From assembly GCA_965213705.1 (NCBI GenBank), contig OZ243913.1, positions 672,001-736,000 on the forward strand: DNA of 64,000 nucleotides. Reading direction: 5' to 3'. The notes below the pieces were generated by a model that was given only the letters and a program-made list of their open reading frames with translations, had not been told where the DNA came from and ran no database searches. The DNA is from Trueperaceae bacterium. GTDB taxonomy: Bacteria; Deinococcota; Deinococci; Deinococcales; Trueperaceae. Position numbers and translations under genes: made by a program. Below, one piece after another: positions 6,455 through 19,798 of this stretch (positions within the stretch are counted from its first letter, which is position 1; every line of letters begins with the position of its first letter).

Positions 6455-9307
6455 TTAGCGGCGGACTCGAGCGGGCCGAATCAACCCGAACTCCAAAGCC
6501 AACTCCGGGTTGTCGCGTTTTAGGGCCGTCATGCGCCGCCGGTACGACCAAAACTCGACGGCGACCGAAACCGTGTTGACGAGGTAGATGACGGCCAACG
6601 CGACGAGGTCCGTCCTCAGCGACAAACCCACACCGATGTTCCACGCGTAAAGGTGGGACAAGGTGTCCAGGCCGACGAGCGCCCAGGGAACCAGCAGCAG
6701 CAAACCCCACACCTCGTCCGCCAAACCGCTGCCCGGCACGAGCAGCGCGAGCACGTGGTAGGCCCAGGTGCGCGGCGCGTTGCGCACCCAGCGAAGCCGA
6801 GGGACAAACAGCCACACGAAGGTTACGGCGACCAGGACTAAAAACAAAACGACCAGGGGCGCCCACAGGGTCGTCGCCAAACCGGCCGGGCGTGCGGCCA
6901 TCAAACCCGACCAGGGGTTGACGAACACCCCGGCCACGGCCCCGCTCCAGTCGCCCGCTCGCGCTACTTGCAGGTCTTGCGAGCTTGGCACGGCCAAAAG
7001 AGGCGTGCCGGGTCGGTAAGCCCGCTGAAAGGCGAACAGGTCGGTCGTGTCTTCGTCCAGGTTGTACCTCGCCTCGGGCAGCCTGGACAGCTCGGTGGCG
7101 CGGCGGTAGAAGGTGTCGTCGCCGGTCAGTGCGCCCAGGTTGTTCAGGGCGGGTGCGAAGTCTTCAGCCGCGTCGTAGCGGGTGCGGGCGCGGTCCTCGT
7201 CGCCTGCTACTTGCGCCGCGTAACCCCTTACGAAGTCGCCGCGCGTCCCGGCGAGCGGCGCGTCTGCGTAGCTCTGGGCCGCGGCGCTCGCGAACGTACC
7301 CGACCCGAGGGCCGCCACGTCGTCCGCTCCCCGGTAACCGGACGCCAGCCCGGCCATGAGCAGCGCCCCGGCCAGCAACATCAGCAAGACGACCTTTTCG
7401 GTAAGGCTGTAAAAACGCATGATGAAAATTCGCGACACAGGGCTGACCGAGCGGTTCAACAAACGACGCCGCTCAAAGTTCACGCTTTGCGCCCGCCAGT
7501 ATTTGGCCGCTAGCGTAAAGTGCAGGGCCAGCACGGTAGCCAGCAACGCCAGGGCGCTGTACCAGCCCGAACGCCCGAGAAAGCGGGCGGCCGCCGCCGG
7601 CGGTGCCAGCCTCAGCCGGCCCCGCCCGAGGTCGCGCCAGCGGTCGGCCTCGAGTCCTTGCCCGTTTTGGCGCAGGAGGTCTGCGTAGTCCCGCAGCGCG
7701 CGGCCCACTGCGGGCACCTCGGGCGCGGCGAAGTAGGCCAGCCACGGTGCCCAAAAGCCGGCGCGCCCTAAGTCCTCAGCGGCAAGTGCCTCTTGAAAAG
7801 GCTGCAGCGGAAAGTTATAGGCCTCGTGCAAGGTCAGGTCGCGCAGCAGCCTCGGGTCGTAACCGCGGGCGGCGAAGTCTCGGAGCGCCTTGTCGGCTGC
7901 GAGGTTCGCCAAGTCCGGCTCGCCCAGCTCGAGCAGCGCGCGGCTCAGTCCGGCCGCGTCGTAAAAGGTCTCGGCGCGTTCCACCGCGGCCGCAAAGGCG
8001 CTCGTTGACTCGGGCGCGTTCAGTGTTTGCCCCACGCGCAGGTAGAGCCACGGGTTGGTCGGGTCTTGGGCCAAGCGGGCCGCGGGGTCTTCGCCCTGCG
8101 CCTCGGCCCGCAACCAGCCGAACAGCGCCGAGGTGGGGTCGAACACCACCGGCTCCGGGGTGCCGCTTGACAACGTCACCGTTTCGGTCTCGGTCGTCAC
8201 CGTGAGCCCGTCCGCGGCGGGGCTCAGCCCGGTGACTTGACTGGGCAGCGCGAGGCGGTCTTGCACCACGCCGGTCGCCAAGTCCAGGGTCAGCAGGCTG
8301 TTGCCGTGTCCCACGTAAACCGCGTCTGAATGGGTCAGCAACCCGCTCGTTTCACCGCTCTCGGGTGGAAAAGTCAGGGTCCAGAGAACCTCGTCGTCGC
8401 CCCGAGCCACCACAGCGTCATTTTCCAAGGCAACCTCGTCGGGGACGGAACGCTGCGCGCTCGGCGTGGGTGCCGGAGAAGGGGCGGGCGCCTCGGTTGG
8501 GAGGGTGTTCTCCGGCGCAACATCGTCCGGTTGGGGCGACGCCGGCGTAGCGGGTGTCTGCTCGAGGGGTGTTCGCTCGAGGGTCGCGCCGGGTTGTGAG
8601 TCTTCTTGAGGTGCGGTTTCGTCCGGCGTTGGGGACGGCGCTGCGGCTCGAGCTGAGGGGGTGTCGGCTGGTGGGGTGTCGGCCGGTACAGTCTCATTCA
8701 GGCCGGGTTCGTTCAGGCCGGGTTCATTCAAGCTGGGTGCGTTCGGGTCGGTCTCGGTGGTGTCGGACCCAGGGGGGTCAGACTCGGCTGGACCTGTCTC
8801 GGCCGGACCCGTCTCAGTTGGAGCCACCTCAGCCGGAGGGGCGGGCGTGACCGTCGACGTTTCTTCGCGGCTCGTCACCTCGACCTCGAACCGTGCGCTC
8901 AAGGTGTCGCCCCGGACAGTCAGCTGCCAGCGTCCCGGCGTGCCAAGTCGTGTGGTGTAGGTAAGGTCGCCTTGGGCGTCGGTTTGCACGTCCTCGACTA
9001 TATTTTCAGCCTGCAGTCCGGGCGCGGCTCCGTCGGGTTCGTTCGTCAGGGTCAGGGTGTAACCGGTTTCCGGAACCAGCCCCGACGCCGTGACGGTGAG
9101 GGGGTCGCCCGCACTCAAGTTGAGGTCGCTGAGCTTGATAAGGGGCAGCGACTGTGCTCGAGCGAAACCGCTTGTCAGGACGAGGCTGCCGGCCAAGCTG
9201 CAAACTAGGCCGTAAACCAAGCCGTAAACGAGGCTACAAGTGAATACACAGCGCAAAAGTTTGGGCAAACCGGTGGTGCGAACCATGAAAAGCCTCCCGT
9301 GACTCAC
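6455..9307 (-). CDS. Large exported/membrane protein with Pro/Thr-rich linker, TPR-like stretch and C-terminal TM helices; function unknown
   Basis: 950-aa ORF with signal-like N-terminus and low-complexity repeats (ETGPA, LNEPG, ADTPP); TATAAT 5 nt before GTG 9307. Confidence 0.75.
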   Translation of the reverse strand: MSHGRLFMVRTTGLPKLLRCVFTCSLVYGLVYGLVCSLAGSLVLTSGFARAQSLPLIKLSDLNLSAGDPLTVTASGLVPETGYTLTLTNEPDGAAPGLQAENIVEDVQTDAQGDLTYTTRLGTPGRWQLTVRGDTLSARFEVEVTSREETSTVTPAPPAEVAPTETGPAETGPAESDPPGSDTTETDPNAPSLNEPGLNEPGLNETVPADTPPADTPSARAAAPSPTPDETAPQEDSQPGATLERTPLEQTPATPASPQPDDVAPENTLPTEAPAPSPAPTPSAQRSVPDEVALENDAVVARGDDEVLWTLTFPPESGETSGLLTHSDAVYVGHGNSLLTLDLATGVVQDRLALPSQVTGLSPAADGLTVTTETETVTLSSGTPEPVVFDPTSALFGWLRAEAQGEDPAARLAQDPTNPWLYLRVGQTLNAPESTSAFAAAVERAETFYDAAGLSRALLELGEPDLANLAADKALRDFAARGYDPRLLRDLTLHEAYNFPLQPFQEALAAEDLGRAGFWAPWLAYFAAPEVPAVGRALRDYADLLRQNGQGLEADRWRDLGRGRLRLAPPAAAARFLGRSGWYSALALLATVLALHFTLAAKYWRAQSVNFERRRLLNRSVSPVSRIFIMRFYSLTEKVVLLMLLAGALLMAGLASGYRGADDVAALGSGTFASAAAQSYADAPLAGTRGDFVRGYAAQVAGDEDRARTRYDAAEDFAPALNNLGALTGDDTFYRRATELSRLPEARYNLDEDTTDLFAFQRAYRPGTPLLAVPSSQDLQVARAGDWSGAVAGVFVNPWSGLMAARPAGLATTLWAPLVVLFLVLVAVTFVWLFVPRLRWVRNAPRTWAYHVLALLVPGSGLADEVWGLLLLVPWALVGLDTLSHLYAWNIGVGLSLRTDLVALAVIYLVNTVSVAVEFWSYRRRMTALKRDNPELALEFGLIRPARVRR

Positions 9308-10278: not shown

Positions 10279-11028
10279 GTGATAAAAGTCGTCGCCATCG
10301 GCGACGTTCACGGTCAGTGGGCCGAGGTGTGGCAAGCCCTCAAGGCCGCGACCGCCTGCGACGCCAAGTTGGCCCCGACCGAGGCCGTCGTCGAGGGCCG
10401 TTTTCAGGTGCTGTTCATCGGCGACCTCGTCCACTACAAAGACACGCTCGCTTACGCTCGAGCGGTCGGCGAAGAGCCCTACGACTCTACAAATCCCGAC
10501 CACCTGCGCCGCGCCGCCAAAGCGCAAGTGCGCGAACTGTACCGCTTTAAGGACTACGTCGACAAAGCGAACGGCAACGTGACCATCATCATGGGCAACC
10601 ACGACGAGGCGGCGCTGACCCACAACTTTGAACTCAGCACCCGCGGCGGCCTGAAACACGACGAGTTCAACGGCAAAAAAGGCGGTACCGCCCTGCCTGA
10701 GGACTTGCAAACCTGGATGCAAGCCTTCAAACGCGAGCAGCTTCTTTACAACGTACATTTCGCCCACGCCGGACCGCTACCCGGAATGCAGTACTTCGAC
10801 GACTTTTTTTATCACGACGCGGACACTAAAAAGTGGTGGTACAACAAACCCCAAATCTTCGCCCACACCGGTCACCGCTTCGGCGTCTACGGCCATACGG
10901 TGATGGAGGAGGGCATCTACGTCGACAAAGACAACCGCTTCGCCATGATAGACGCGCTTTCCCACCGACAATTTTTCGAGATGTTTTTGGACGAAGAGCG
11001 CTTGGACTACAGGGTGATGCAGTTTTAG
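10279..11028 (+). CDS. Metallophosphoesterase
   Basis: IGDVHG, IGDLVH, MGNHD, AHAG, YGHT. Confidence 0.88.
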   Translation: MIKVVAIGDVHGQWAEVWQALKAATACDAKLAPTEAVVEGRFQVLFIGDLVHYKDTLAYARAVGEEPYDSTNPDHLRRAAKAQVRELYRFKDYVDKANGNVTIIMGNHDEAALTHNFELSTRGGLKHDEFNGKKGGTALPEDLQTWMQAFKREQLLYNVHFAHAGPLPGMQYFDDFFYHDADTKKWWYNKPQIFAHTGHRFGVYGHTVMEEGIYVDKDNRFAMIDALSHRQFFEMFLDEERLDYRVMQF

Positions 11029-11134
11029 GCTCCGGTTTGCTCAAGACCGTCTCAACTTCGGCACCATGACACGAGTGCCGTCAGCCCACCTGCAGAAAGC
11101 TTGAAGTAGAGTGTGGACGCGACGACGGCAACAC

Positions 11135-11320
11135 CAGAAACTTTAGAAATTTTACGCGGACATTTATCGCGCCGCGCTCACACACCAAACTCGAGCCCTT
11201 CGGCTAAGGAAACCTGTGCAAAAACTTGTAAAAGCAAAAACTGCGCAGTTTGGAGAAAGTCTTGTCGTAGACGTAGTTTTTGAGACGGCCGAAAAAAGGG
11301 AGCATCGACTTGAGGAAGTT
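11135..11320 (+). pseudogene. Decayed duplicate of the DUF4160-DUF2442 cassette at 13669-14216
   Basis: Aligns by eye to 13779-13830 and 13908-14040 (ETLEILRG.L.RRAH; KLEP; LVKAKT...VVDVVFET.EK) with internal deletions; followed by the same spacer repeat as the intact copy. Confidence 0.85.
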
Positions 11321-11428
11321 GGGGCTCGAGCCACTTGCCGACTTCAAATTTGCTTAGCGTTGAGGGCTCGAGCGGCCGTAGGGCGAGTACAGTCTGGTGG
11401 GTTTTGGGAAGGTGTTGAGGGCTCGAGG
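11321..11428. repeat. TA-array spacer copy R1 (units A+B)
   Basis: CTCGAG at 11325, 11367, 11422 (spacing 42, 55). Confidence 0.85.
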
Positions 11429-11437
11429 TATGTCGTC

Positions 11438-11722
11438 CTACTTTTTCCCGTAGGCAGAGTCATGGTTAGGGTGAAGCGAAACGAACTTTAAGACATCTCC
11501 ATCACGCTTTACCACAGCACGGCATTTTTGAGTAACCCGAAGGGTGTAAGCATCCTCCGCGAGAGACTTAATGCTTTCCCACCGCAAGCCCTTGTCACGG
11601 TAAACTTGCGTCCAAGAAAGTTGTTTGAGTTTGCGCAGCGTTTTGAAAAAGGCCAGCAGTTCAACTTTTTCAAGCTCGAGCAAATCCGCCTGAAACTGAG
11701 GTCGGTTGAGGTCGAACTCCAC
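11438..11722 (-). CDS. Putative RelE/ParE-fold toxin
   Basis: 94 aa, basic; YTLRVTQKCRAVV...HPNHDSAY C-terminus; coupled to the upstream gene. Confidence 0.65.
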   Translation of the reverse strand: MEFDLNRPQFQADLLELEKVELLAFFKTLRKLKQLSWTQVYRDKGLRWESIKSLAEDAYTLRVTQKCRAVVKRDGDVLKFVSLHPNHDSAYGKK

Positions 11723-12012
11723 TACTCGTCCAACGGCTCGCCGTGCTCAGCTTCCCACCTTTTGCGAATCTCAGTCTCGAAGCTGTCCAAGTCCGTGACC
11801 TGAGTAGGATGTTCCCTAGCCCACTCGAGACCTTCAGCTATTTTGCTTTTGGCGGGTTCTTGGTGTAACCACAGTTCGTTGTCTGGAATAACCGTTGCCG
11901 TCTTGATAACCCAAACACCCTCTTCCGGCGTATCTACAACAACGGTGCGTCCGGCGTATTCCTTACCTAACGAGAGCTGTCCACTCTGACCTATCGTTTT
12001 TACTTGTGACAC
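11722..12012 (-). CDS. Putative antitoxin with AbrB/MazE-like N-terminus
   Basis: KTIGQSGQLSLGKEYAG swapped-hairpin-like start, acidic C-terminus; 1-nt overlap with the toxin. Confidence 0.65.
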   Translation of the reverse strand: MSQVKTIGQSGQLSLGKEYAGRTVVVDTPEEGVWVIKTATVIPDNELWLHQEPAKSKIAEGLEWAREHPTQVTDLDSFETEIRKRWEAEHGEPLDE

Positions 12013-12094
12013 ACAAACCTACTTTCATGCTACAGGATAGCACGATTTAAACACATTAGAGATGTGATGGAGAGCTGACGAGATTGTGGAACTC

Positions 12095-12230
12095 ACGGCT
12101 CTTACCAACTTTGGGATTTGCTCAGCGTTGAGGGCTCGAGCGGCTATAGGATGATAATTGGGTGAAGTTGGGGATATTGGGGGCTCGCGGCGCTTGACAA
12201 CTTTGAACTCACGCAAGCAGGAGCTCGAGC
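12095..12230. repeat. TA-array spacer copy R2 (A'+B+A', degenerate)
   Basis: CTCGAG 12135, CTCGCG 12184, CTCGAG 12224. Confidence 0.75.
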
Positions 12231-12500
12231 CTAAGGAAAATAGCGATACATGTCTTTGCGGTGCAGCGCCCGCTTGAACACCACGGTGTCGTCTTCTACC
12301 GTAAAACCGACCCGGTAATCGCTAACTCAAATGCGGTAGGCGGCGTCAGCATTCTTCAGCTTTTTCAAGTTGGGTACGTCGGACAAACTATCCAAGGACG
12401 GGAAAGTATCGAAAGCCAACGTCTTGATGCGCTCGTAAGTTGCGTTACCCTGCAAGCGTTTTAAGTTTTTGACAAAACTTGCGGCGTAGACCGTTTTCAC
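12231..12500 (-). pseudogene. RelE/ParE toxin with an internal nonsense codon
   Basis: MKTVYAASFVKNLKRL...LKKLKNADAAYRI*VSDYRVGF...ALHRKDMYRYFP; TGA at 12327-12329 replaces the conserved Arg of YRIRxGDYR. Confidence 0.9.
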
Positions 12501-12691
12501 TCGGCAAGCGCCGCGAGGGCTTGCTCGAGCGTCAACACTTCTCCTTTATCAGCTTCTTGTATCGCTCGCAAAAGGCAAACGTCTTCTATGACCTCGAGAA
12601 GCTCTTCGTACACGTCTATGGGAAGAAGTACGTGGGTTTTGTTGCCTTCTTCGTCATGGAGAAAGGAAGGGTCTCGCGCAGTGTCAACCAT
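12497..12691 (-). CDS. Antitoxin (RelB-like) of the 12231-12500 toxin
   Basis: 64 aa acidic, GTGA overlap with the toxin; TACAAT 7 nt before ATG. Confidence 0.8.
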   Translation of the reverse strand: MVDTARDPSFLHDEEGNKTHVLLPIDVYEELLEVIEDVCLLRAIQEADKGEVLTLEQALAALAE

Positions 12692-12724
12692 TTGGATCAT
12701 TGTAGCAGGCTTTGAGTTTTGGGT

Positions 12725-12828
12725 GGGCTCGAGCCGCTTATCGGCCTCAAGTTTGCTTAGCGTTGAGGGCTCGAGAGTCCATAAGGTAGTTAGGTCGGGT
12801 GAGGCTGGGAGGTGTTTGGGGCTCGAGC
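12725..12828. repeat. TA-array spacer copy R3 (A+B)
   Basis: CTCGAG 12728, 12770, 12822 (spacing 42, 52). Confidence 0.85.
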
Positions 12829-13065
12829 CTACAACTGGTCCTGCGGTTCAGGCTCGGTGTTTTTAACTTTACCAAGCGCACGCTCAAACTTTTCACGGTT
12901 TCCCCGCTTGGCACGTTCCTCTAGATACTCGGTCGTCATGAGCGCCGCCATTTTTTCCGCCAACGCTGTAGCGACGAGTTGGTTGATGGAAACCCCCTCT
13001 TGCTTGGCGAGTTCCCGTGCCTGCTTGTGTAGGGATTCGGGTAGTCTCAGACTGATGGTGCTCAC
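12829..13065 (-). CDS. Ribbon-helix-helix (HicB-like) antitoxin
   Basis: ISLRLPESLHKQARELAKQEGVSINQLV RHH signature. Confidence 0.85.
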   Translation of the reverse strand: MSTISLRLPESLHKQARELAKQEGVSINQLVATALAEKMAALMTTEYLEERAKRGNREKFERALGKVKNTEPEPQDQL

Positions 13066-13490
13066 AGCGCTCCTATCTTTTGCAGCAGCGTCTTAGGGCT
13101 GACGACTTCGAGCCCGAACGTCTCGACACCGGAAAAATCCTTTTCATTATAGGTCACAATAAAATTACAGGCTGCTTCCACCGCCAGCTCGAGCACCATG
13201 TCGTTTTTGGGGTCTTTGAGAAAAGGCCGCCACAGAAAGAAGATGTCGTGCTTGTTGGCAACTGAACAAAGGTAATCGAGGATGTCGTCAATATCTTCAT
13301 GATTTAGGCCTATATTCTCGCTCAGTCTTTTAGCTACCTCTTCGTATTCCAGCGCGAGTGGCACAGAGAGGTTGATTGCGAAGGTATCCGTCAGTCCTAT
13401 CAGCGTCAAAAGTTTGTAGGAAGCGCCTCGGCTCGAGCGCAGCGCGGAGATGAGGACGTTTGTGTCGAGAACGACTTGGTAGGGGTTCAT
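13062..13490 (-). CDS. PIN-domain (VapC-like) toxin
   Basis: VVLDTNVLISAL, EYEEV, WRPFLKDPKNDMVLELAV, IVTYNEKDF. Confidence 0.92.
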   Translation of the reverse strand: MNPYQVVLDTNVLISALRSSRGASYKLLTLIGLTDTFAINLSVPLALEYEEVAKRLSENIGLNHEDIDDILDYLCSVANKHDIFFLWRPFLKDPKNDMVLELAVEAACNFIVTYNEKDFSGVETFGLEVVSPKTLLQKIGAL

Positions 13491-13491
13491 C

Positions 13492-13511
13492 TGGTATCAA
13501 ATACAATACCA
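13492..13511. promoter_or_regulatory. Candidate operator palindrome of the PIN/RHH pair
   Basis: TGGTATCAAATACAATACCA (TGGTAT...ATACCA) immediately upstream of the PIN ATG. Confidence 0.5.
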
Positions 13512-13540
13512 CGAAGGTAGTTCTCAGGTGTGTTTTGGGT

Positions 13541-13635
13541 TGGGCTCGAGCCACTTGCCAACTTCAAATTTGCTTAGCATTGAAAGCTCGAGCGGCCATA
13601 GGGTGATGATAGTCCGAAAGGTTGGAGGCTCGCGA
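13541..13635. repeat. TA-array spacer copy R4 (A+short B)
   Basis: CTCGAG 13545, 13587, CTCGCG 13629. Confidence 0.85.
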
Positions 13636-13668
13636 CGTATAAATTTGTGAAAAGGCTAAACTACGTTC

Positions 13669-13929
13669 ATGCCTTCAATCTGCATTTTCTACGGCATCGT
13701 CATCTACATGTACTACAACGACCACAATCCACCCCACTTCCACGCCGAATATACTGAATTTGAGGCCGTCTATACAATAGAAACTTTAGAAATCCTACGT
13801 GGAAATCTGCCGCGCCGCGCTCATGCACTCGTCGTAGAATGGGCTACCTTGAACCGGACAGAACTGCTGGACAACTGGCGCAAAGCAAGAGCGGCTGAGC
13901 CGCCCGCTAAACTCGAGCCCCTTGACTGA
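13669..13929 (+). CDS. DUF4160-family protein (putative toxin)
   Basis: MPSICIFYGIVIYMYYNDHNPPHFHAEY...LLDNW...KLEPL; TAAACT leaderless box. Confidence 0.9.
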   Translation: MPSICIFYGIVIYMYYNDHNPPHFHAEYTEFEAVYTIETLEILRGNLPRRAHALVVEWATLNRTELLDNWRKARAAEPPAKLEPLD

Positions 13930-13937
13930 GGAGATAC

Positions 13938-14216
13938 ATGCGACAACTTGTAAGAGCAAAAACTGTGCAACCTAGAGAGAGTTTTGTCGTAGATGTAGTT
14001 TTTGAAACGGACGAAAAGAGGAGCATTGACCTCGAGAAGTATCTGCAAGGCCCCGTTTTCGAAGCCGTGCGGAGTAACCCCGAGCTGTTCCAAAGTGTAA
14101 GGGTAGAGCGAGGGATTCTCACGTGGGGTGAAGGTGAGTTGTTGGCCGACATCGACCCTGACGTGCTTTATTACAATTTGGTTCCTGCACGTCTCGAGGA
14201 GGTTGAAGCGGCTTAG
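13938..14216 (+). CDS. DUF2442-family protein (putative antitoxin)
   Basis: VVFETDEKRSIDL...GPVFEAV...F..VRVE.G.LTW...DIDPDVLY. Confidence 0.85.
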   Translation: MRQLVRAKTVQPRESFVVDVVFETDEKRSIDLEKYLQGPVFEAVRSNPELFQSVRVERGILTWGEGELLADIDPDVLYYNLVPARLEEVEAA

Positions 14217-14223
14217 GAAGATT

Positions 14224-14352
14224 GGGGCTCGAGCCACTTCCCGACCGAAGAGTTTGCTTAGCGTTGAAAGCTCGAGCGGCCATAGAGTGATTGTAGTCTG
14301 GTGGGGTCGGGGAGTTGTTGGGGGCTCGAGACACTTGCCAACTTCAAATTTG
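14224..14352. repeat. TA-array spacer copy R5 (A+B+A)
   Basis: CTCGAG 14228, 14271, 14325 (spacing 43, 54), then a second A unit. Confidence 0.88.
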
Positions 14353-14367
14353 CGCTGAGTAAATTTT

Positions 14368-14637
14368 CTACGTCAACCTCTTATAAACATCCTTGCGGTG
14401 TCCGACGAGCATCAGAACGATGATATGTCCTTTGGTGTCTACAGAGTAGATGACTCGGTAATCGCCCACACGTAAGCGGTACAGTTGCTTAGCACCCCTG
14501 AGCTTTTTCGTGTTCGGCCCAAGGGGATTCTCGGCAAGCTGCCGGGTTCGCTCGACGATAAGTTGTACAGTCTCGGCAGGCAGCTTTTGCAGCGCTTTTT
14601 CGAACGAGCGGCGGGCGCTCAGGCTATAACTTGCCAC
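14368..14637 (-). CDS. RelE/ParE-family toxin
   Basis: LAENPLGPNTKKLRG...YRLRVGDYRVIY...VGHRKDVY. Confidence 0.93.
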   Translation of the reverse strand: MASYSLSARRSFEKALQKLPAETVQLIVERTRQLAENPLGPNTKKLRGAKQLYRLRVGDYRVIYSVDTKGHIIVLMLVGHRKDVYKRLT

Positions 14638-14821
14638 TGCGTTTCAAGTCGCTTACAAGTTCGTCAAAGGGAAGGGTATCTTCTTCCCCGAGTTCGGCGA
14701 CCACAGCCAAGTCGTGCAGGTCCTCGAGAAGCTCTTCGTACACGTCGATGGGAAGCAGTACGTGGGTTTTGTTGCCTTCTTCGTCGTGAAGAAAGGAAGG
14801 GTCTCGGGCAGTGTCGACCAT
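14624..14821 (-). CDS. Antitoxin (RelB-like), first 33 aa identical to 12497-12691
   Basis: MVDTARDPSFLHDEEGNKTHVLLPIDVYEELLE then DLHDLAVV...; overlaps the toxin start. Confidence 0.82.
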   Translation of the reverse strand: MVDTARDPSFLHDEEGNKTHVLLPIDVYEELLEDLHDLAVVAELGEEDTLPFDELVSDLKRSGKL

Positions 14822-14854
14822 TTGGATTATTGTAGCAGGCTTTGAGTTTTGGGT

Positions 14855-14905
14855 GGGCTCGAGCCGCTTACTCCTTTTGGACTTGCATAAAATGAGGGTT
14901 CGCAA
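14855..14905. repeat. TA-array spacer copy R6 (degenerate A)
   Basis: GGGCTCGAGCCGCTTA...TTGCATAAAATGAGGGTTCGC; 41-bp spacing. Confidence 0.6.
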
Positions 14906-14930
14906 CCGACGTTTTAGAAGCCCTGAACAC

Positions 14931-15281
14931 CTATAATCCCAGACAGTAGCAAACAGCTTCCTCAACTTCTTCAAGTATTCTTTCGGAAAGCCCACCTGCT
15001 GCTTGGGCTGGAAACCTCGCAGCGTCGACGGAGCGTAACTGAAAGCCGAGAAAAACGGTCTCGAGTGGTAACCCACTTTCGCTGGTCGGCACCCGCACAT
15101 TCGTTCGGTAATCTCGTTTGACGTTGTCGCCCTTTGTACCGACAACAACCGTGACCACCAGCGGGCGTGAGTTGATTTCGTCAATCGAGAGCACAAGCAC
15201 CGGCCGACTTCCCGCTTGTTCACGCCCCGTCGTAGGGTTCAAGTCGACAAAATAGATTTCGCCACGTTTTGGATGCGTCAC
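14931..15281 (-). CDS. MazF/PemK-family endoribonuclease toxin
   Basis: PKRGEIYFVDLNPTTGREQAGSRPVLVLS...FQLRSVD. Confidence 0.93.
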   Translation of the reverse strand: MTHPKRGEIYFVDLNPTTGREQAGSRPVLVLSIDEINSRPLVVTVVVGTKGDNVKRDYRTNVRVPTSESGLPLETVFLGFQLRSVDAARFPAQAAGGLSERILEEVEEAVCYCLGL

Positions 15282-15493
15282 AAGCCGCCAAGTCCGTCTT
15301 CTTCAGTTAGGCGGAACTCGACATCTAATGCACTCAGTTCTCGTTGAATATCGGGGTCGGCAACCATTTCGTCTAAGTCACTGCCAACGTCTTTTTGCAA
15401 GGTAGAGGCGAGCCGTTCAAGCAGCCACAGTTTGTCCTCATGCGTGAGGTTGGTGATTTGTTTTTCTAAGTCGAGTAAAGCTCGAGAGGCCAT
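15278..15493 (-). CDS. Putative antitoxin of the MazF toxin
   Basis: 71 aa acidic ORF MASRALLDLEKQ...EFRLTEEDGL with GTGA overlap; TATAAT 6 nt before ATG. Confidence 0.75.
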   Translation of the reverse strand: MASRALLDLEKQITNLTHEDKLWLLERLASTLQKDVGSDLDEMVADPDIQRELSALDVEFRLTEEDGLGGL

Positions 15494-15564
15494 AGGATGA
15501 TTATAGTCGGGTGGGGTTGGGGAGGGTGTTGAGGGTTCGAGGCGCTTGCTAATTTTGAATTTGT
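15478..15564. repeat. TA-array spacer copy R7 (B+A'), supplying promoter and start codon of the antitoxin
   Basis: CTCGAG 15481, TTCGAG 15536 (spacing 55). Confidence 0.8.
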
Positions 15565-16002
15565 GCGCCGCAATCTTCAAAATAAATTTGAGGTATTATT
15601 TCGGAAATGTTCGACCCTGTTCAAGAGTTTGATTTGCTTTCAAAACCAGGAAATTTGGGGTTCTATTCACGTTGTGAAATCACTACCATCTTCTTAAAGA
15701 AAAAAGGAGAGAAACAGCCGAAAAATTTGTATACGCTGTGCGTTTTAGAAGAATCCACCTTACCTAAAAACATCTTTACCTGTATCACGCCAAAATTGCA
15801 GTCGATTACGGCGGAGGTATCTTTAGGTATCGTCCGACATTACGAATCTCTGGAAAACACTCGAGCAAAGTACGTGCAACTTTTCCAGAATAACACTTGG
15901 GAAAACGAAGGTGAATTTCTTGGACTGTCGAAGCCAAAACCTCTGCCAAAACAGTTTGTGCCCTCAACAGAAAATACGCCACTCAATTCAGTTCTAAAGA
16001 AT

Positions 16003-17079
16003 TAGGACTTACGCACACAACTGCATAGGAATAGCAGGATGTTTGAGCTGCTGTCTCATGTAGTTGTCGAGTTGTCCAAACTTAAGCTGATAAACAGTGG
16101 TGCCGAGTCGAGTAGCAAAGCGCTTAAGCTGCGCCCAGACCAAGAAAGAACAAGCGATGTGGTTTCTCAGGGCTCTGGACATGCGGCATTGACAACCTTC
16201 AAGACCCGTTACTTGTTTGGCTTCACGGTGAAACTGCTCAATCTTCCAGCGAACGCCGCAGTGATGTTTCACAACGTCCGAGTCGTCCTGAGTCATGTCA
16301 TTGGTGACAATACAATCCGTGCGCTCGGTAGAGACCGCTAGCCGGAACAGTTTCATACGGTGACCTTTGGGCATCTTTTTGAGGTGAATCGTCTTGCCTT
16401 CTCTCAGTTCTTCGTCGCTCCAGTCTAAGCTGTCAACACGCTGATGTTTTCTCTCACCCTCGCTGTCATCAACGTGACGGTTCGTTTTGATGGGGCAGTA
16501 GTAGATTTTCTCTAACGACTCGATATATTTGATAACTTGCATGGAGGCGTACCAGCTATCCATCAGCACCGTCTTGAAAGAGAGTCTCTTGCCGTGCAGA
16601 ACGTTGTCGAGCATTTCCAGCATGTGCTTGATTTTGCTCTGCTCATCCCCCTCGGGGTCATACACCCGAAAGTCAATCACCCAGAACTGCTGCGTCTCAG
16701 GATTGACGTAGACGCACGTTACTACCCCGATGCCGTAGATGACCCGCTTTTCGTTCCCGCTCCACTGCCGCCTAACTAAGCGTGAATGGCGGCTATGGCG
16801 TTTGTCCAGCACCACATCGTCAAACAACACATAGCCCTGTTCGCTCAGCACCACATCCTCTCGCACGTTCTCCCACAGGGTTCTCGGTGTCAGCGTATCC
16901 AGCCGTAAAAAGCGATTCATGCTGTCGTGGCTATAACGCTCGCTATGGTCTGCCAGGTACGTCTGTGTGTAGTTGATTTGGCTACTAATCAAAAACTGAC
17001 AGTAGTCCAACCGGTGTTGCTGATAGTCCATAGCCCATGCCAGCAAGTCTTTTCATTTGAAGCGTGTGCGTAAGTCCTA
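16003..17079 (-). mobile_element. IS701-family insertion sequence, 1077 bp
   Basis: Perfect 16-bp terminal IRs TAGGACTTACGCACAC (16003-16018) / GTGTGCGTAAGTCCTA (17064-17079); 4-bp TSD GAAT (15999-16002, 17080-17083). Confidence 0.93.
16009..17046 (-). CDS. IS701-family DDE transposase
   Basis: SHDSMNRFL, LFDDVVLDK, VLMDSWY, RWKIEQFHREAKQVTG; stop codon inside the IR. Confidence 0.93.
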   Translation of the reverse strand: MLAWAMDYQQHRLDYCQFLISSQINYTQTYLADHSERYSHDSMNRFLRLDTLTPRTLWENVREDVVLSEQGYVLFDDVVLDKRHSRHSRLVRRQWSGNEKRVIYGIGVVTCVYVNPETQQFWVIDFRVYDPEGDEQSKIKHMLEMLDNVLHGKRLSFKTVLMDSWYASMQVIKYIESLEKIYYCPIKTNRHVDDSEGERKHQRVDSLDWSDEELREGKTIHLKKMPKGHRMKLFRLAVSTERTDCIVTNDMTQDDSDVVKHHCGVRWKIEQFHREAKQVTGLEGCQCRMSRALRNHIACSFLVWAQLKRFATRLGTTVYQLKFGQLDNYMRQQLKHPAIPMQLCA

Positions 17080-18283
17080 GAATAATTTCGACAGTGGCTC
17101 TTACGTGCTGGAATTCTTTGCTGAAGACAAAAGTGAATATCAAACCTTTTTATATGACAATGCCCTCTTGAATAAAGTAAGTGAAGTGATTCGAGGCTAC
17201 CTTCCAATTGACATTGCTTATATCAGGGAACGTATTGGCAATCTAATATTTCAGTTTCCAATAACACTTGTAGCAGTCGGAGAGAGTACAAACGCCGAGG
17301 GGAATACAATTCTATTCAATGTCGCTTGGCATCCAAAATTGAAAGAATTACCGGCGTGTGGTGTTGTAGTTCAGAGTGAATTAGATGGATTATTACTCAG
17401 TTTTGCTCAACAATCAAATTTTACAGAACTTAACAGTTCTGTTCAGGTCGGTTCAACAGACGCACAGGTAGAATCATTTATTTACGATAAGTCTACGTCC
17501 TTAGATACTTCGTACTTTTCGCGGTGCAGCTATAAAGGGCTTTAATTTAGGTACAAGACTTATCAGTCCAGAAAAACGAAGTGTGAAGGTACCAAATGAG
17601 AATCAACCGGGAGATACTGTTTTTGAAATCGAGGTGGCATCAAAGGTAACCCAAGGCCAAATATCGTCTGGGGACTACCACTTTCGTATCCAATCAAGGA
17701 TTTATGACTCAGAGAGAGAAAGGCTAGCACGTGAACGAATTTTTGTTCAGTATGGAAGAGGCACTGATGATAGGATAAAGGCGTTAGAAGATGTACGATT
17801 ATTGATTCAAAAGTATGGTGAAGAAGGTGCTTATCTTTGGGATCCGTATTTATCTGGTAGAGACCTGATTCAGACACTTTTTTTCTGTAAAACTGCACAT
17901 GTTCCGCTAAGAGCTATTGGTTCGAATAAGGTTGTGGGCTTGCAGAAAAAAGACAAAGCGTGTAACGCAAAAAATTCAGCATCTCCTTGGCCTGATTGGG
18001 TGAAAGAACAAGTAAAACTATTAGAGGGTAGTAGTAATCATGTTGGTCTGAACACGGAATTTCGATGTAAATGTGGTAATGCGGGTTGGGGCTTTCACGA
18101 CAGATTTTTGATTTTCCCAAGAATGCGTGAGCCTTTAGCTTGGTCGTTAGGTATTTCTGTCAACCAATTAGGCAAAGAGCACCACATATTGCAGCGTGTG
18201 GATAATGCACAAAATATCCTAGATGCGTTTAATGACTTATGGTCTGTGCTAAAAAATCCCAACTGCCTAATTTGGAAAAAGCT

Positions 18284-19798
18284 GTGACGTCAAGAGATTA
18301 TCAAGAGTTTATCGAGATTGTTATGGAGCGAGTTGATTCGATTGAACTTGACGAGGAATTTATAGAGATTGATTCTGCAAGCTCCAAGTTAGAATTAGAG
18401 GATTTCTTTCGTGGCAGTAATCTGGACTTCATCCATGATTTGCTTAATCGCAAGCTCGGGATGCTCTTCAAATATCAAGCTTCAAGTGTGAAGTTTCCTA
18501 TTTTGCCTGAAGATGTCAAAGAGGCGGCTAAATTTTTGGTCAAGAGCAGGAGCATGTTTTGGGACGCGCTAGCTATGAGGGATGCAAAGCAACTATTGAT
18601 TGCACTGATAATCTTTAGGCGTTTTGAGCTTGATTACACACTGCTTTTTGACTCTTCACAGCTAGACCAAGAGCAACGCTCCTGGTTGGTCGGCTGTTTG
18701 ATGAAGCTTTTATCGCTCAAAACAAGTGTTGATGTTGAAGTAAACGCAAACGTGCCAGAGTATGAAAAGAAATTGCTTCAGAGTTATCAAGTTGGGTTTG
18801 AAAACCTAGACATAAGAAGAGTTTACGAATTTATAGAGGCGCTAGAGAGAAGCAATATTTTCTACAGCCACTACTTGAGTGATGAGGCGCGCAAAGTTCT
18901 TTATTATGTTGATGTCGATCAATTCGATTGGCAGCTACAGCAGAAAACGGAGCTGTTAGAGATTATCGCTTTTTTGAAAAATTTATCGTTTGGGGCCAAA
19001 CTCTTTCTCTTGAACAAAAAGCGTAATTTCAATGAATGGACTTTGTTTGAGACTGTCAGGCAACTACTTCAAAAGAAAAACTCTAATTCTTGGGACCAAG
19101 AGAATATTGAGATTCTTTCCACTGGTATAGAACGTGTTTATGAGAAAAACTCTGTATTTTTTTCGGATATGAACAGTTATTTTTTAGGGAATATCGTGTA
19201 CAATAGCGCGTTAGGAAAAGTGCTTGCAACAATAGAATTGAAACACTTCAAAGAATTCATAAATAGAATCGAATTTAGTAAGTACAAAGATGTAAACAAG
19301 CTTCGTGCCTTCTGCGAATTACTTTCGTGCCTTGACAAATACGACTCTGATACACGCACCATTTTGTTCTGCCGAAGTATTTACAAGAAGTGGGAGATTT
19401 TTCTTCAGAGTAAGTATGGTAACGGAGAGTATCTTTTTAAGCCTACAGTTACAGATTACTTTTGTGTTCTTCTAGGTCATCTCCAAATAAAGCTTGACAC
19501 TCGACGAAAAGCAGTGAGAGCCGTTGGCAAGATTGTTCAATCCCTCGAGGAAATTCAATCCAGGTGGTTTAAAAACGCAATTGAAAGAACCTCTTTCTAT
19601 TTTGTTCAGCTATCGAAACTATATCTATTGAGCTTCCTATGGCGAGAGCAGGACTTTGAATTTGCATCGAATTCGCGCGTCAAAAATAGCTTGACTGGCT
19701 TTTTATCAGACAAACGGTTTCATATATTAAATCGAGGCATAGGCGAAGGAGACTACTACTTGGAGATGTCTAAAAACTTTGGCCTCGAAAAAAAGTAA
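18284..19798 (+). CDS. AT-rich hypothetical protein, probably alpha-helical; partner of the VPA1262-like gene
   Basis: Uninterrupted ~500-aa ORF; GTGA overlap with the upstream stop. Confidence 0.75.
   Translation: MTSRDYQEFIEIVMERVDSIELDEEFIEIDSASSKLELEDFFRGSNLDFIHDLLNRKLGMLFKYQASSVKFPILPEDVKEAAKFLVKSRSMFWDALAMRDAKQLLIALIIFRRFELDYTLLFDSSQLDQEQRSWLVGCLMKLLSLKTSVDVEVNANVPEYEKKLLQSYQVGFENLDIRRVYEFIEALERSNIFYSHYLSDEARKVLYYVDVDQFDWQLQQKTELLEIIAFLKNLSFGAKLFLLNKKRNFNEWTLFETVRQLLQKKNSNSWDQENIEILSTGIERVYEKNSVFFSDMNSYFLGNIVYNSALGKVLATIELKHFKEFINRIEFSKYKDVNKLRAFCELLSCLDKYDSDTRTILFCRSIYKKWEIFLQSKYGNGEYLFKPTVTDYFCVLLGHLQIKLDTRRKAVRAVGKIVQSLEEIQSRWFKNAIERTSFYFVQLSKLYLLSFLWREQDFEFASNSRVKNSLTGFLSDKRFHILNRGIGEGDYYLEMSKNFGLEKK

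Follow-up and report, generated by a model that had tools for sequence, protein, structure and literature searches.

Spacer repeats resembling a predicted leaderless antitoxin 5′ end punctuate a variable toxin-antitoxin-type array in Trueperaceae

Within a 64,000-nt stretch of the chromosome of a Trueperaceae bacterium (positions 672,001 to 736,000 of contig OZ243913.1, assembly GCA_965213705.1; hereafter 'the window', and its source genome G000), six gene pairs of toxin-antitoxin type and one decayed pair occupy positions 11131..15573, downstream of a uvrA paralog. The pairs are set apart by spacers built from two short units, A (~36 nt) and B (36-49 nt), bounded by CTCGAG-like cores, and the resulting spacer repeats of 100-150 bp all share the same orientation (Table 1). 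An array occupies the same position in G001, a genome of the same genus. A first-pass annotation of the window had read unit B as a portable leaderless promoter plus start codon, fused either to a real antitoxin or to a micro-open reading frame (micro-ORF) of 11 codons. Here, we describe the array, argue that B is likely to be a copy of the 5′ end of one particular gene, the putative antitoxin partner of MazF, and weigh the ways in which such an array could have arisen.

Copies of the two units are confined to this locus. A profile search of G000 returned six copies of B and nine of A (E 6.5e-16 to 1.9e-6), all at the array, and because the best match elsewhere in the 4.25-Mb genome reached only E 2.4 for B and 0.074 for A, the copies cannot be put down to chance. 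Unit B occurs in two of 128 genomes of the family, G000 and G001, and in none of the other 126, while unit A was found in none of 150 other genomes in a sample of the order drawn without G001. An exact-pattern scan of genome contigs matched the G001 contig alone, a metagenome scan gave two partial protein matches, and an Rfam search gave no match at E up to 5. Spacer repeats do not match convincingly across genera either, the best comparison for unit A reaching E 0.049 and that for B consisting of one 24-nt match at E 0.004.

In form, B is predicted to be a leaderless promoter plus start codon. Every sequence quoted by the first-pass annotation is present where it was placed (the reads in R7, R4, R3 and R5, the ACG of R1 and the ATA of R2), and the signal to which it appealed is real in this genome: TANNNT stands 6 nt before the first ATG of 133 of 1925 long ORFs in G000, whereas any single spacing from 0 to 4 nt or from 9 to 24 nt accounts for 9-25. 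TANNNT ~6 nt before ATG is the leaderless promoter form of Deinococcota in a published account (PMC12340547). A box at this spacing together with an ATG is seen in R7, R4 and R5 but not in R3 (CCTAAC, with no TANNNT at 6-nt spacing), R1 (TGTACT) or R2 (box out of place), and both elements are kept in three of the six B copies of the window. Scored with the G000 -10 matrix, B7, B5 and B4 reach 13.5, 12.2 and 12.5 bits (9th-20th percentile of the training set) and B1-B3 fall below 0; the former thus look like ordinary, rather weak members of the leaderless class, to which the latter would not belong. No two-box promoter, -35 element or Shine-Dalgarno sequence was matched at B. Across G000 and G001 together, eight of 13 B copies present the -10 box and ATG motif.

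A full-length gene follows only two of these 13 copies, one in each genome, and it is the same gene both times: that of a 71-aa protein without Pfam or NCBIfam match, a putative antitoxin by its position directly upstream of the MazF/PemK gene. Of 546 homologs found, 120 were listed, and 89 of these have exactly nine residues before a conserved Glu, the same number as in MASRALLDL-E; Ser is the commonest third residue among 112 distant homologs, and a homolog 80% identical to the protein (P0005) begins MASQAL. In a further genome, G110, the homolog has its own TATAAT-6 nt-ATG, and no match to B occurs anywhere in that genome. Because the N-terminal length agrees with that of these 89 homologs and the G110 gene has its box without B, the ATG of B7 is, judged by this comparison, the native start of the gene. 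The first-pass annotation had named homologs of repeat-free genomes natively starting MASRA as one half of what would speak against it; most are not literally MASRA, but a start at the native position is in substance what they have. B has moreover remained with the MazF-partner antitoxin in both genomes despite a shift of the cassette from one end of the array to the other, and it is likely that B is a copy of the 5′ end of this gene. Unit A was considered as a remnant of the antitoxin coding sequence and not accepted as such (p 0.02 in one of four copies, 0.11-0.24 in the others).

G001 is ~86% identical to G000 over the 282 kb aligned, and the two arrays differ in order. Counted from uvrA, G000 carries the MazF pair, RelB/ParE, the inverted DUF4160/2442 pair, the PIN/HicB-like pair, the RelB pair, the unnamed pair and the decayed DUF pair, and G001 the RelB pair, the inverted DUF pair, the unnamed pair, the MazF pair and a HicB tail; four orthologous cassettes, 81-91% identical, are thus ordered differently. 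Variation also appears among contigs assembled from a single sample that was sequenced in two runs and is probably the one from which the window came; the contigs are not independent of the window for that reason and may represent strains or related species. The minority forms seen there include sequence that matches the RelB cassette exactly as far as 12734, where GCTCGAGC ends, and then passes into a different unit; a jump from 14353 to uvrA; an intact DUF2442 gene where the window copy has a deletion; and a new A allele placed before the RelB promoter. Within the window itself, two antitoxins that differ both in their C-terminal half and in their toxin share a RelB promoter and its first 33 codons (12592-12740 and 14722-14870), the duplicate tract of 149 nt having seven mismatches and the likeness stopping 1 nt past an in-frame internal CTCGAG. 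A joint from 15531 to 14929, which might have marked an excised circle, could equally well come from a strain like G001, in which mazF is followed by a B copy, and was not counted. At the level of sequence, the array gains, loses or swaps modules at its repeats and is variable in both order and content.

Table 1. Features of the array and its spacers in window coordinates (A', B1-B5, B7 and A1-A6 are unit copies; single numbers give the positions of cores)
Feature	Position	Strand	Details
Unit B7	15487..15535	-	C-rich tract, TATAAT -10 box 15505-15500, CATCCT, ATG 15493; 5′ end of the MazF-partner antitoxin gene
71-aa putative antitoxin of MazF pair	15278..15493	-	546 homologs; in frame with ATG of B7
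MazF/PemK toxin	14931..15281	-	PF02452
Divergent unit A upstream of B7	15542..15573	-	behind CTCGAA core 15536-15541
Unit A6	14864..14900	-	then core at 14858-14863
RelB-like promoter duplicate	14722..14870	-	TACAAT, 7 nt, ATG 14821, 33 codons
RelB-like antitoxin (PF18506) and ParE toxin (PF05016)	14368..14821	-	absent from G001 array
Spacer R5	14228..14363	-	A', core 14325, B5 14277-14324 (TACAAT-CACTCT-ATG 14283), core 14271, A5, core 14228
54-codon frame opened by B5	14119..14283	-	antisense to DUF2442 end
DUF4160 and DUF2442 pair, inverted	13669..14216	+	own TAAACT-6 nt-ATG; DUF4160 DhiT-like, under NCBIfam cut-off
Spacer R4	13545..13634	-	core CGCGAG 13629, B4 13593-13628 (TATCAT-CACCCT-ATG 13599), core 13587, A4, core 13545
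R4 micro-ORF MAARAFNAKQI-stop	13564..13599	-	starts at B4 ATG
PIN toxin (PF13470) and HicB-like ribbon-helix-helix antitoxin	12829..13490	-	absent from G001 array
Spacer R3	12728..12827	-	core 12822, B3 12776-12821 (box lost, ATG 12782), core 12770, A3, core 12728
R3 micro-ORF MDSRALNAKQT-stop	12747..12782	-	starts at B3 ATG
RelB-like antitoxin (PF18506) and toxin-position ORF	12327..12691	-	'RelE-like' only by eye; toxin-position ORF without Pfam match
Spacer R2	12092..12229	-	core 12224, A', core CGCGAG 12184, B2 (ATA), core 12135, A2
Unnamed two-gene module, 96 aa and 94 aa	11438..12012	-	no family above cut-off; toxin-antitoxin-like by layout
Spacer R1	11325..11427	-	core 11422, B1 (TGTACT, ACG), core 11367, A1, core 11325
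Decayed second DUF4160/DUF2442 copy, distal end	11131..11324	+	internal deletion begins where intact copy has a CTCGAG

Several further features surround or accompany these cassettes. The toxin-position ORF of the RelB cassette (12327-12500) ends at 57 aa, its G001 ortholog at 89 aa. An inverted repeat, TGGTAT...ATACCA (13493-13512), precedes the PIN gene, a similar one precedes the homolog in G017, and it is possible that this is the operator of the ribbon-helix-helix antitoxin. A low-GC insert (15607-19798) separates the array from uvrA and contains a fragmented VPA1262-family gene (17105-18287), a DDE transposase (16003-17079) with inverted repeats of 16 bp and two ORFs without family; G001 has different genes there, and one sample variant skips the insert altogether. 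The distal edge of the array (~11030-11130; G000:C1:656617-656924) is a rearrangement breakpoint between G000 and G001, the 26-kb block to its left being found elsewhere in G001. More widely, the site behind this uvrA paralog varies across the family, with toxin-antitoxin-like pairs, named by eye, in several genera (L064-L082). Elsewhere in G000, a HicA/HicB-like pair has an in-frame stop in its first gene (G000:C1:1765190-1765800).

The account towards which we lean, with moderate confidence, is that B is a duplicated antitoxin 5′ end lodged in the spacers, that host recombination between repeats shuffles the cassettes, that CTCGAG provides occasional microhomology, and that promoter capture is a side outcome. 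It takes as its starting point what the alignments document, namely the repeats, the reordering, the variants, the native start and the decay of B copies. An antitoxin 5′ end, which reaches as far as the first CTCGAG and holds a predicted leaderless promoter, the ATG and three further codons, would have been duplicated and, together with unit A, would have become the spacer repeat. Repeats of this length and common orientation could then serve as homology for host recombination, enabling excision, reinsertion and exchange of cassettes without an integrase, as in the PeSL (promoter-early stem-loop) cassettes of certain phages considered below, with CTCGAG supplying microhomology at some joints, also inside genes. 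Copies of B parted from their gene decay, as the sequences show, and leave micro-ORFs of arbitrary length; eight of the 11 B copies without a full-length gene keep the ATG and open frames of 9-54 codons, which are likely by-products and in themselves probably of little interest.

The earlier proposal that joining at CTCGAG gives an incoming ORF both its transcription and its translation start finds no support here. The form of B does fit the genome's own standard and is repeated through a rearranged array, but several observations speak against the handing over of a start: the ATG is native to the antitoxin gene, a single antitoxin uses it, other cassettes have motifs of their own (a TANNNT spaced by 6-7 nt in the RelB and DUF4160 cassettes and by 12-24 nt in the PIN and unnamed ones), and the frame rarely fits. 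In B, the reading of CTCGAG begins at the second codon position, a frame used by 768 of 5467 genic sites (14%), the Leu-Glu frame being used in 3771; were a gene cut at CTCGAG, its frame would fail to match that of B in about six cases out of seven. It is nevertheless conceivable, though in our judgement unlikely, that B is a selected portable expression module at cassette borders, giving arriving genes transcription and a start codon, with empty copies raising the transcription of the cassette that follows (B3, B4) or, for B5, transcribing the inverted DUF2442 in antisense. Both box and ATG are retained in six of the 11 B copies without a full-length antitoxin gene; the terminal copy of G001, Bg, shares its frame with a HicB-type gene of which only the last 25 codons are present (76% to a gene elsewhere in G000); and gene-less promoter cassettes of Vibrio superintegrons act on their neighbours (10.1101/2023.11.21.568050). 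Against it, in those 11 copies the columns of box and ATG are off consensus in 11 of 66 cells and neighbouring columns in 34 of 198, so that the signals appear no better conserved than their surroundings. Only one type of full-length gene is fused to B, and the Bg fusion is a 36-codon fragment that, like the fusions in arrays of other genera, does not lie at a CTCGAG.

Support for a wider idea of portable starts comes from those other arrays, which were picked as examples rather than as a census from 52 screened loci, in a screen without three loci of G111. In G046, of another genus, a unit of TATAAT-6 nt-ATG occurs three times, only within the toxin-antitoxin array (L038:8340-11260), and precedes two unrelated antitoxin-position genes and a 31-codon stub. 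In a third genus (G055 and G056), a 90-nt repeat stands at seven and six borders respectively, most full copies end in TANNNT-6 nt-ATG, and the repeat, as TATCCT-6 nt-ATG plus ~12 codons, heads a DUF433 (PF04255) and a RelB-like (PF18506) gene, otherwise giving stubs of 5-33 codons; cassette order again differs between the two genomes. Unrelated repeats in two other genera thus each head two unrelated antitoxins, and stubs of antitoxin 5′ ends recur in the arrays of G046, G055 and G056. Capture of a B-type promoter and start by another gene may accordingly be regarded as an occasional outcome in related arrays, and not as the routine means of cassette expression in G000. Three of the arrays, in G055 (L159:7460-12500), G056 (L161:6970-10350) and G054 (L171:5870-7580), lie directly behind two pilin-like genes, and their repeat is composed of a hairpin, a T run, a -10 box and an ATG, the hairpin and T run of G055 being judged by eye. 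Others each have a CTCGAG-containing spacer repeat of their own: L162:3740-16001 (G058), L017:5960-9870 (G017), L163:4510-7310 (G004), L164/L166 (G054/G055) and the G046 array. Repeats resembling attC (TAAC...GTT, by eye) accompany a series of cassettes in G079, one of them a DUF4160 cassette (L144:258-2887), and a true integron-type array may exist within the family there.

The palindrome at the borders is itself a conspicuous feature of the genome. No hexamer of G000 is more over-represented than CTCGAG (8868 copies, 3.7x), the octamer GCTCGAGC occurs 2879 times (8.4x), and CTCGAG is enriched 2.4-16x in stretches of 11 of 11 other family genomes, stretches that are biased to arrays; GATC, GAGCTC, CCATGG and TGGCCA are strongly avoided in G000. 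In each of four arrays measured, spacers contain 14-20 CTCGAG per kb and array genes 2.4-4.9. It could be that a dedicated recombinase or nicking enzyme, encoded at some other place, acts on the core and the flank on one side of it, be it of integron type, pdif-like or guided by palindrome methylation, with A and B as insertion residues. We consider this rather improbable, although all units lie in one orientation, the same one-sided flank (TTG plus purines) accompanies 23 of 33 array cores as against 283 of 17736 sites in the genome, the switch points of one variant contig and of one chimeric gene are no more than 1 nt from a core, and CTCGAG is present in the spacers of arrays in G004, G017, G046, G054, G055 and G058. 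A candidate partner of CTCGAG is an Eco57I-type adenine methyltransferase (L093; G000:C1:1135936-1137624) with 41-50% identical matches in G001, G017 and G110; a XhoI-family nuclease was not found, in a search that gave no match in its controls either. Against such an enzyme, spacer sequence is not convincingly shared across genera. Outside the array, 46 of 372 alignment ends lie near CTCGAG, where 23 were expected from shifted positions, but the excess is gone against a gene-end control (22 of 206 versus 18.6, a value reached in 231 of 1000 draws), and a genome-wide role for the 8868 cores at breakpoints was rejected.

Nor does the locus resemble the site-specific systems that such an enzyme would call to mind. 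The boxes of attC sites read RYYYAAC...GTTRRRY; dif sites have two inverted 11-bp arms around a 6-bp centre; and the pdif (XerC/XerD) modules of Acinetobacter plasmids have toxin-antitoxin genes framed by short sites whose centre is 6 bp long. Integron integrase TIGR02249 exceeded its cut-off in neither G000 nor G001 (best 66.5 of 265 bits), although no control genome passed either, and the nearest gene for a tyrosine recombinase (PF00589) is 558 kb from the array. No pair of attC boxes lies within 40-200 nt of one another at 11000-15700 of the window, and two such pairs in G001 do not coincide with repeats. No covarying fold was detected in the repeats, where only core-to-core pairing is available and none of nine pairs covaries; covariation of the 5′ part of B with the following A, which had seemed promising by eye, was rejected (p 0.12 over nine pairs; cognate duplex p 0.12 and 0.28), the post hoc result for G000 alone being 6 of 120 permutations. 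Of the hallmarks of an integron, or of attC clusters that have no integron integrase (CALINs), only variable cassette order and content is present, and the array is not identified as either. Like pdif modules, the array has toxin-antitoxin genes between short 6-bp-centred sites, but it is chromosomal and lacks inverted 11-bp arms at the core: a mean of 3.06 of 11 arm positions pair at 33 cores and 3.09 at 8868 genomic sites, and a dif or pdif identity was set aside. Variable order, spacers in one orientation, promoter-carrying toxin-antitoxin cassettes and one inverted cassette recall sedentary chromosomal integrons and CALINs, in which toxin-antitoxin cassettes (PMC4889954, PMC13108822) and the gene-less promoter cassettes of Vibrio (10.1101/2023.11.21.568050) provide functional parallels; unlike in integrons, nearly all the cargo here is toxin-antitoxin, cassettes are not promoterless, and no folded site is conserved. 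In cyanobacteria, the highly iterated palindromic octamer HIP1 (GCGATCGC; 10.1101/2024.09.10.611283) receives insertions of the SDR5 repeat and has been linked to site-specific recombination (PMC4390886), a link that lends the dedicated-enzyme explanation some encouragement. In the same way, the iterated palindrome GCTCGAGC forms the borders of small repeat units and is found at some recombination joints, but its sequence and phylum are different, its enrichment is 8.4-fold compared with 55-228 for most HIP1 genomes (the underlying models may differ), and its units are not dispersed.

The explanation to which we give least credence is that tandem duplication and deletion at a variable locus downstream of uvrA left the repeats behind as passive debris, with pairs piling up by resisting loss and differences in order reflecting independent gains and losses, as might be thought from decayed cassettes being distal in both genomes and from ~4 of 19 other genomes read having toxin-antitoxin-like pairs behind the uvrA paralog, by eye, with no repeats noted; it sits poorly with the different order of four orthologous cassettes, with variants that switch inside repeats, and with repeats at every border here and in the arrays of other genera, which also vary in order.

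Several observations weigh against the preferred account, in which host recombination shuffles cassettes between duplicated antitoxin 5′ ends. The closer homologs P0006-P0008 begin MTKLLELEKQ, so N-termini vary in this lineage, and the direction of events, whether B came from the gene or the DNA upstream of the gene was replaced by B, is argued from protein length only. The conservation test on B uses related, non-independent copies and has little power. The arrays of G055 and G056 rearrange with a repeat that lacks CTCGAG. Cores occur every 35-55 bp in the spacers, which makes the evidence from junctions near CTCGAG partly circular, and the lost breakpoint excess counts here too; the shared flank of the cores fits common descent but would also fit a recombinase site. 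Finally, no excised circle was seen among the assembled contigs, the only material searched.

The closest known system is that of the PeSL cassettes in the T4-type phages RB49 and phi1, where promoter repeats ending at the downstream start codon separate small variable genes, and where modules are lost, gained and reordered through recombination between these repeats, no integrase being named (PMC2839356). Unlike PeSL, with its sigma-70 early promoter, Shine-Dalgarno sequence and stem-loop terminator, the Trueperaceae array is chromosomal, its cargo consists of toxin-antitoxin pairs with their own predicted promoters, and its start is predicted to be leaderless, with no Shine-Dalgarno sequence and no terminator-like stem-loop in A or B. 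Terminator-like sites number five in the 4.7 kb of the array against 6.1 by chance, and one touches a spacer. No description of such arrays, or of this palindrome in Trueperaceae, was found in the literature searched, which covered few subscription papers.

A bolder extrapolation, which we offer as speculation and think doubtful, is that the Trueperaceae run an integrase-free platform of toxin-antitoxin cassettes. The border repeat of each array would act at once as swap point, promoter and start; GCTCGAGC, cut or marked by a conserved methylation system, would seed crossovers, also within genes, where it would build in-frame chimeric antitoxins; and empty repeats would tune their neighbours through sense and antisense transcription. 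Arrays of the kind described here would reveal a way in which bacteria that have no integron can assemble, rearrange and recombine their stocks of toxin-antitoxin genes with nothing more than gene starts that are repeated. Where, as in this phylum, expression needs no more than six bases of box ahead of an ATG, a 50-bp repeat can hold the signals for both transcription and translation. The array also points to a HIP-like palindrome outside the cyanobacteria, with a role in recombination that is testable on a small, naturally rearranging locus. The value of the finding lies in family-wide, integrase-free toxin-antitoxin arrays with promoter-bearing repeats, and not in the micro-ORFs.

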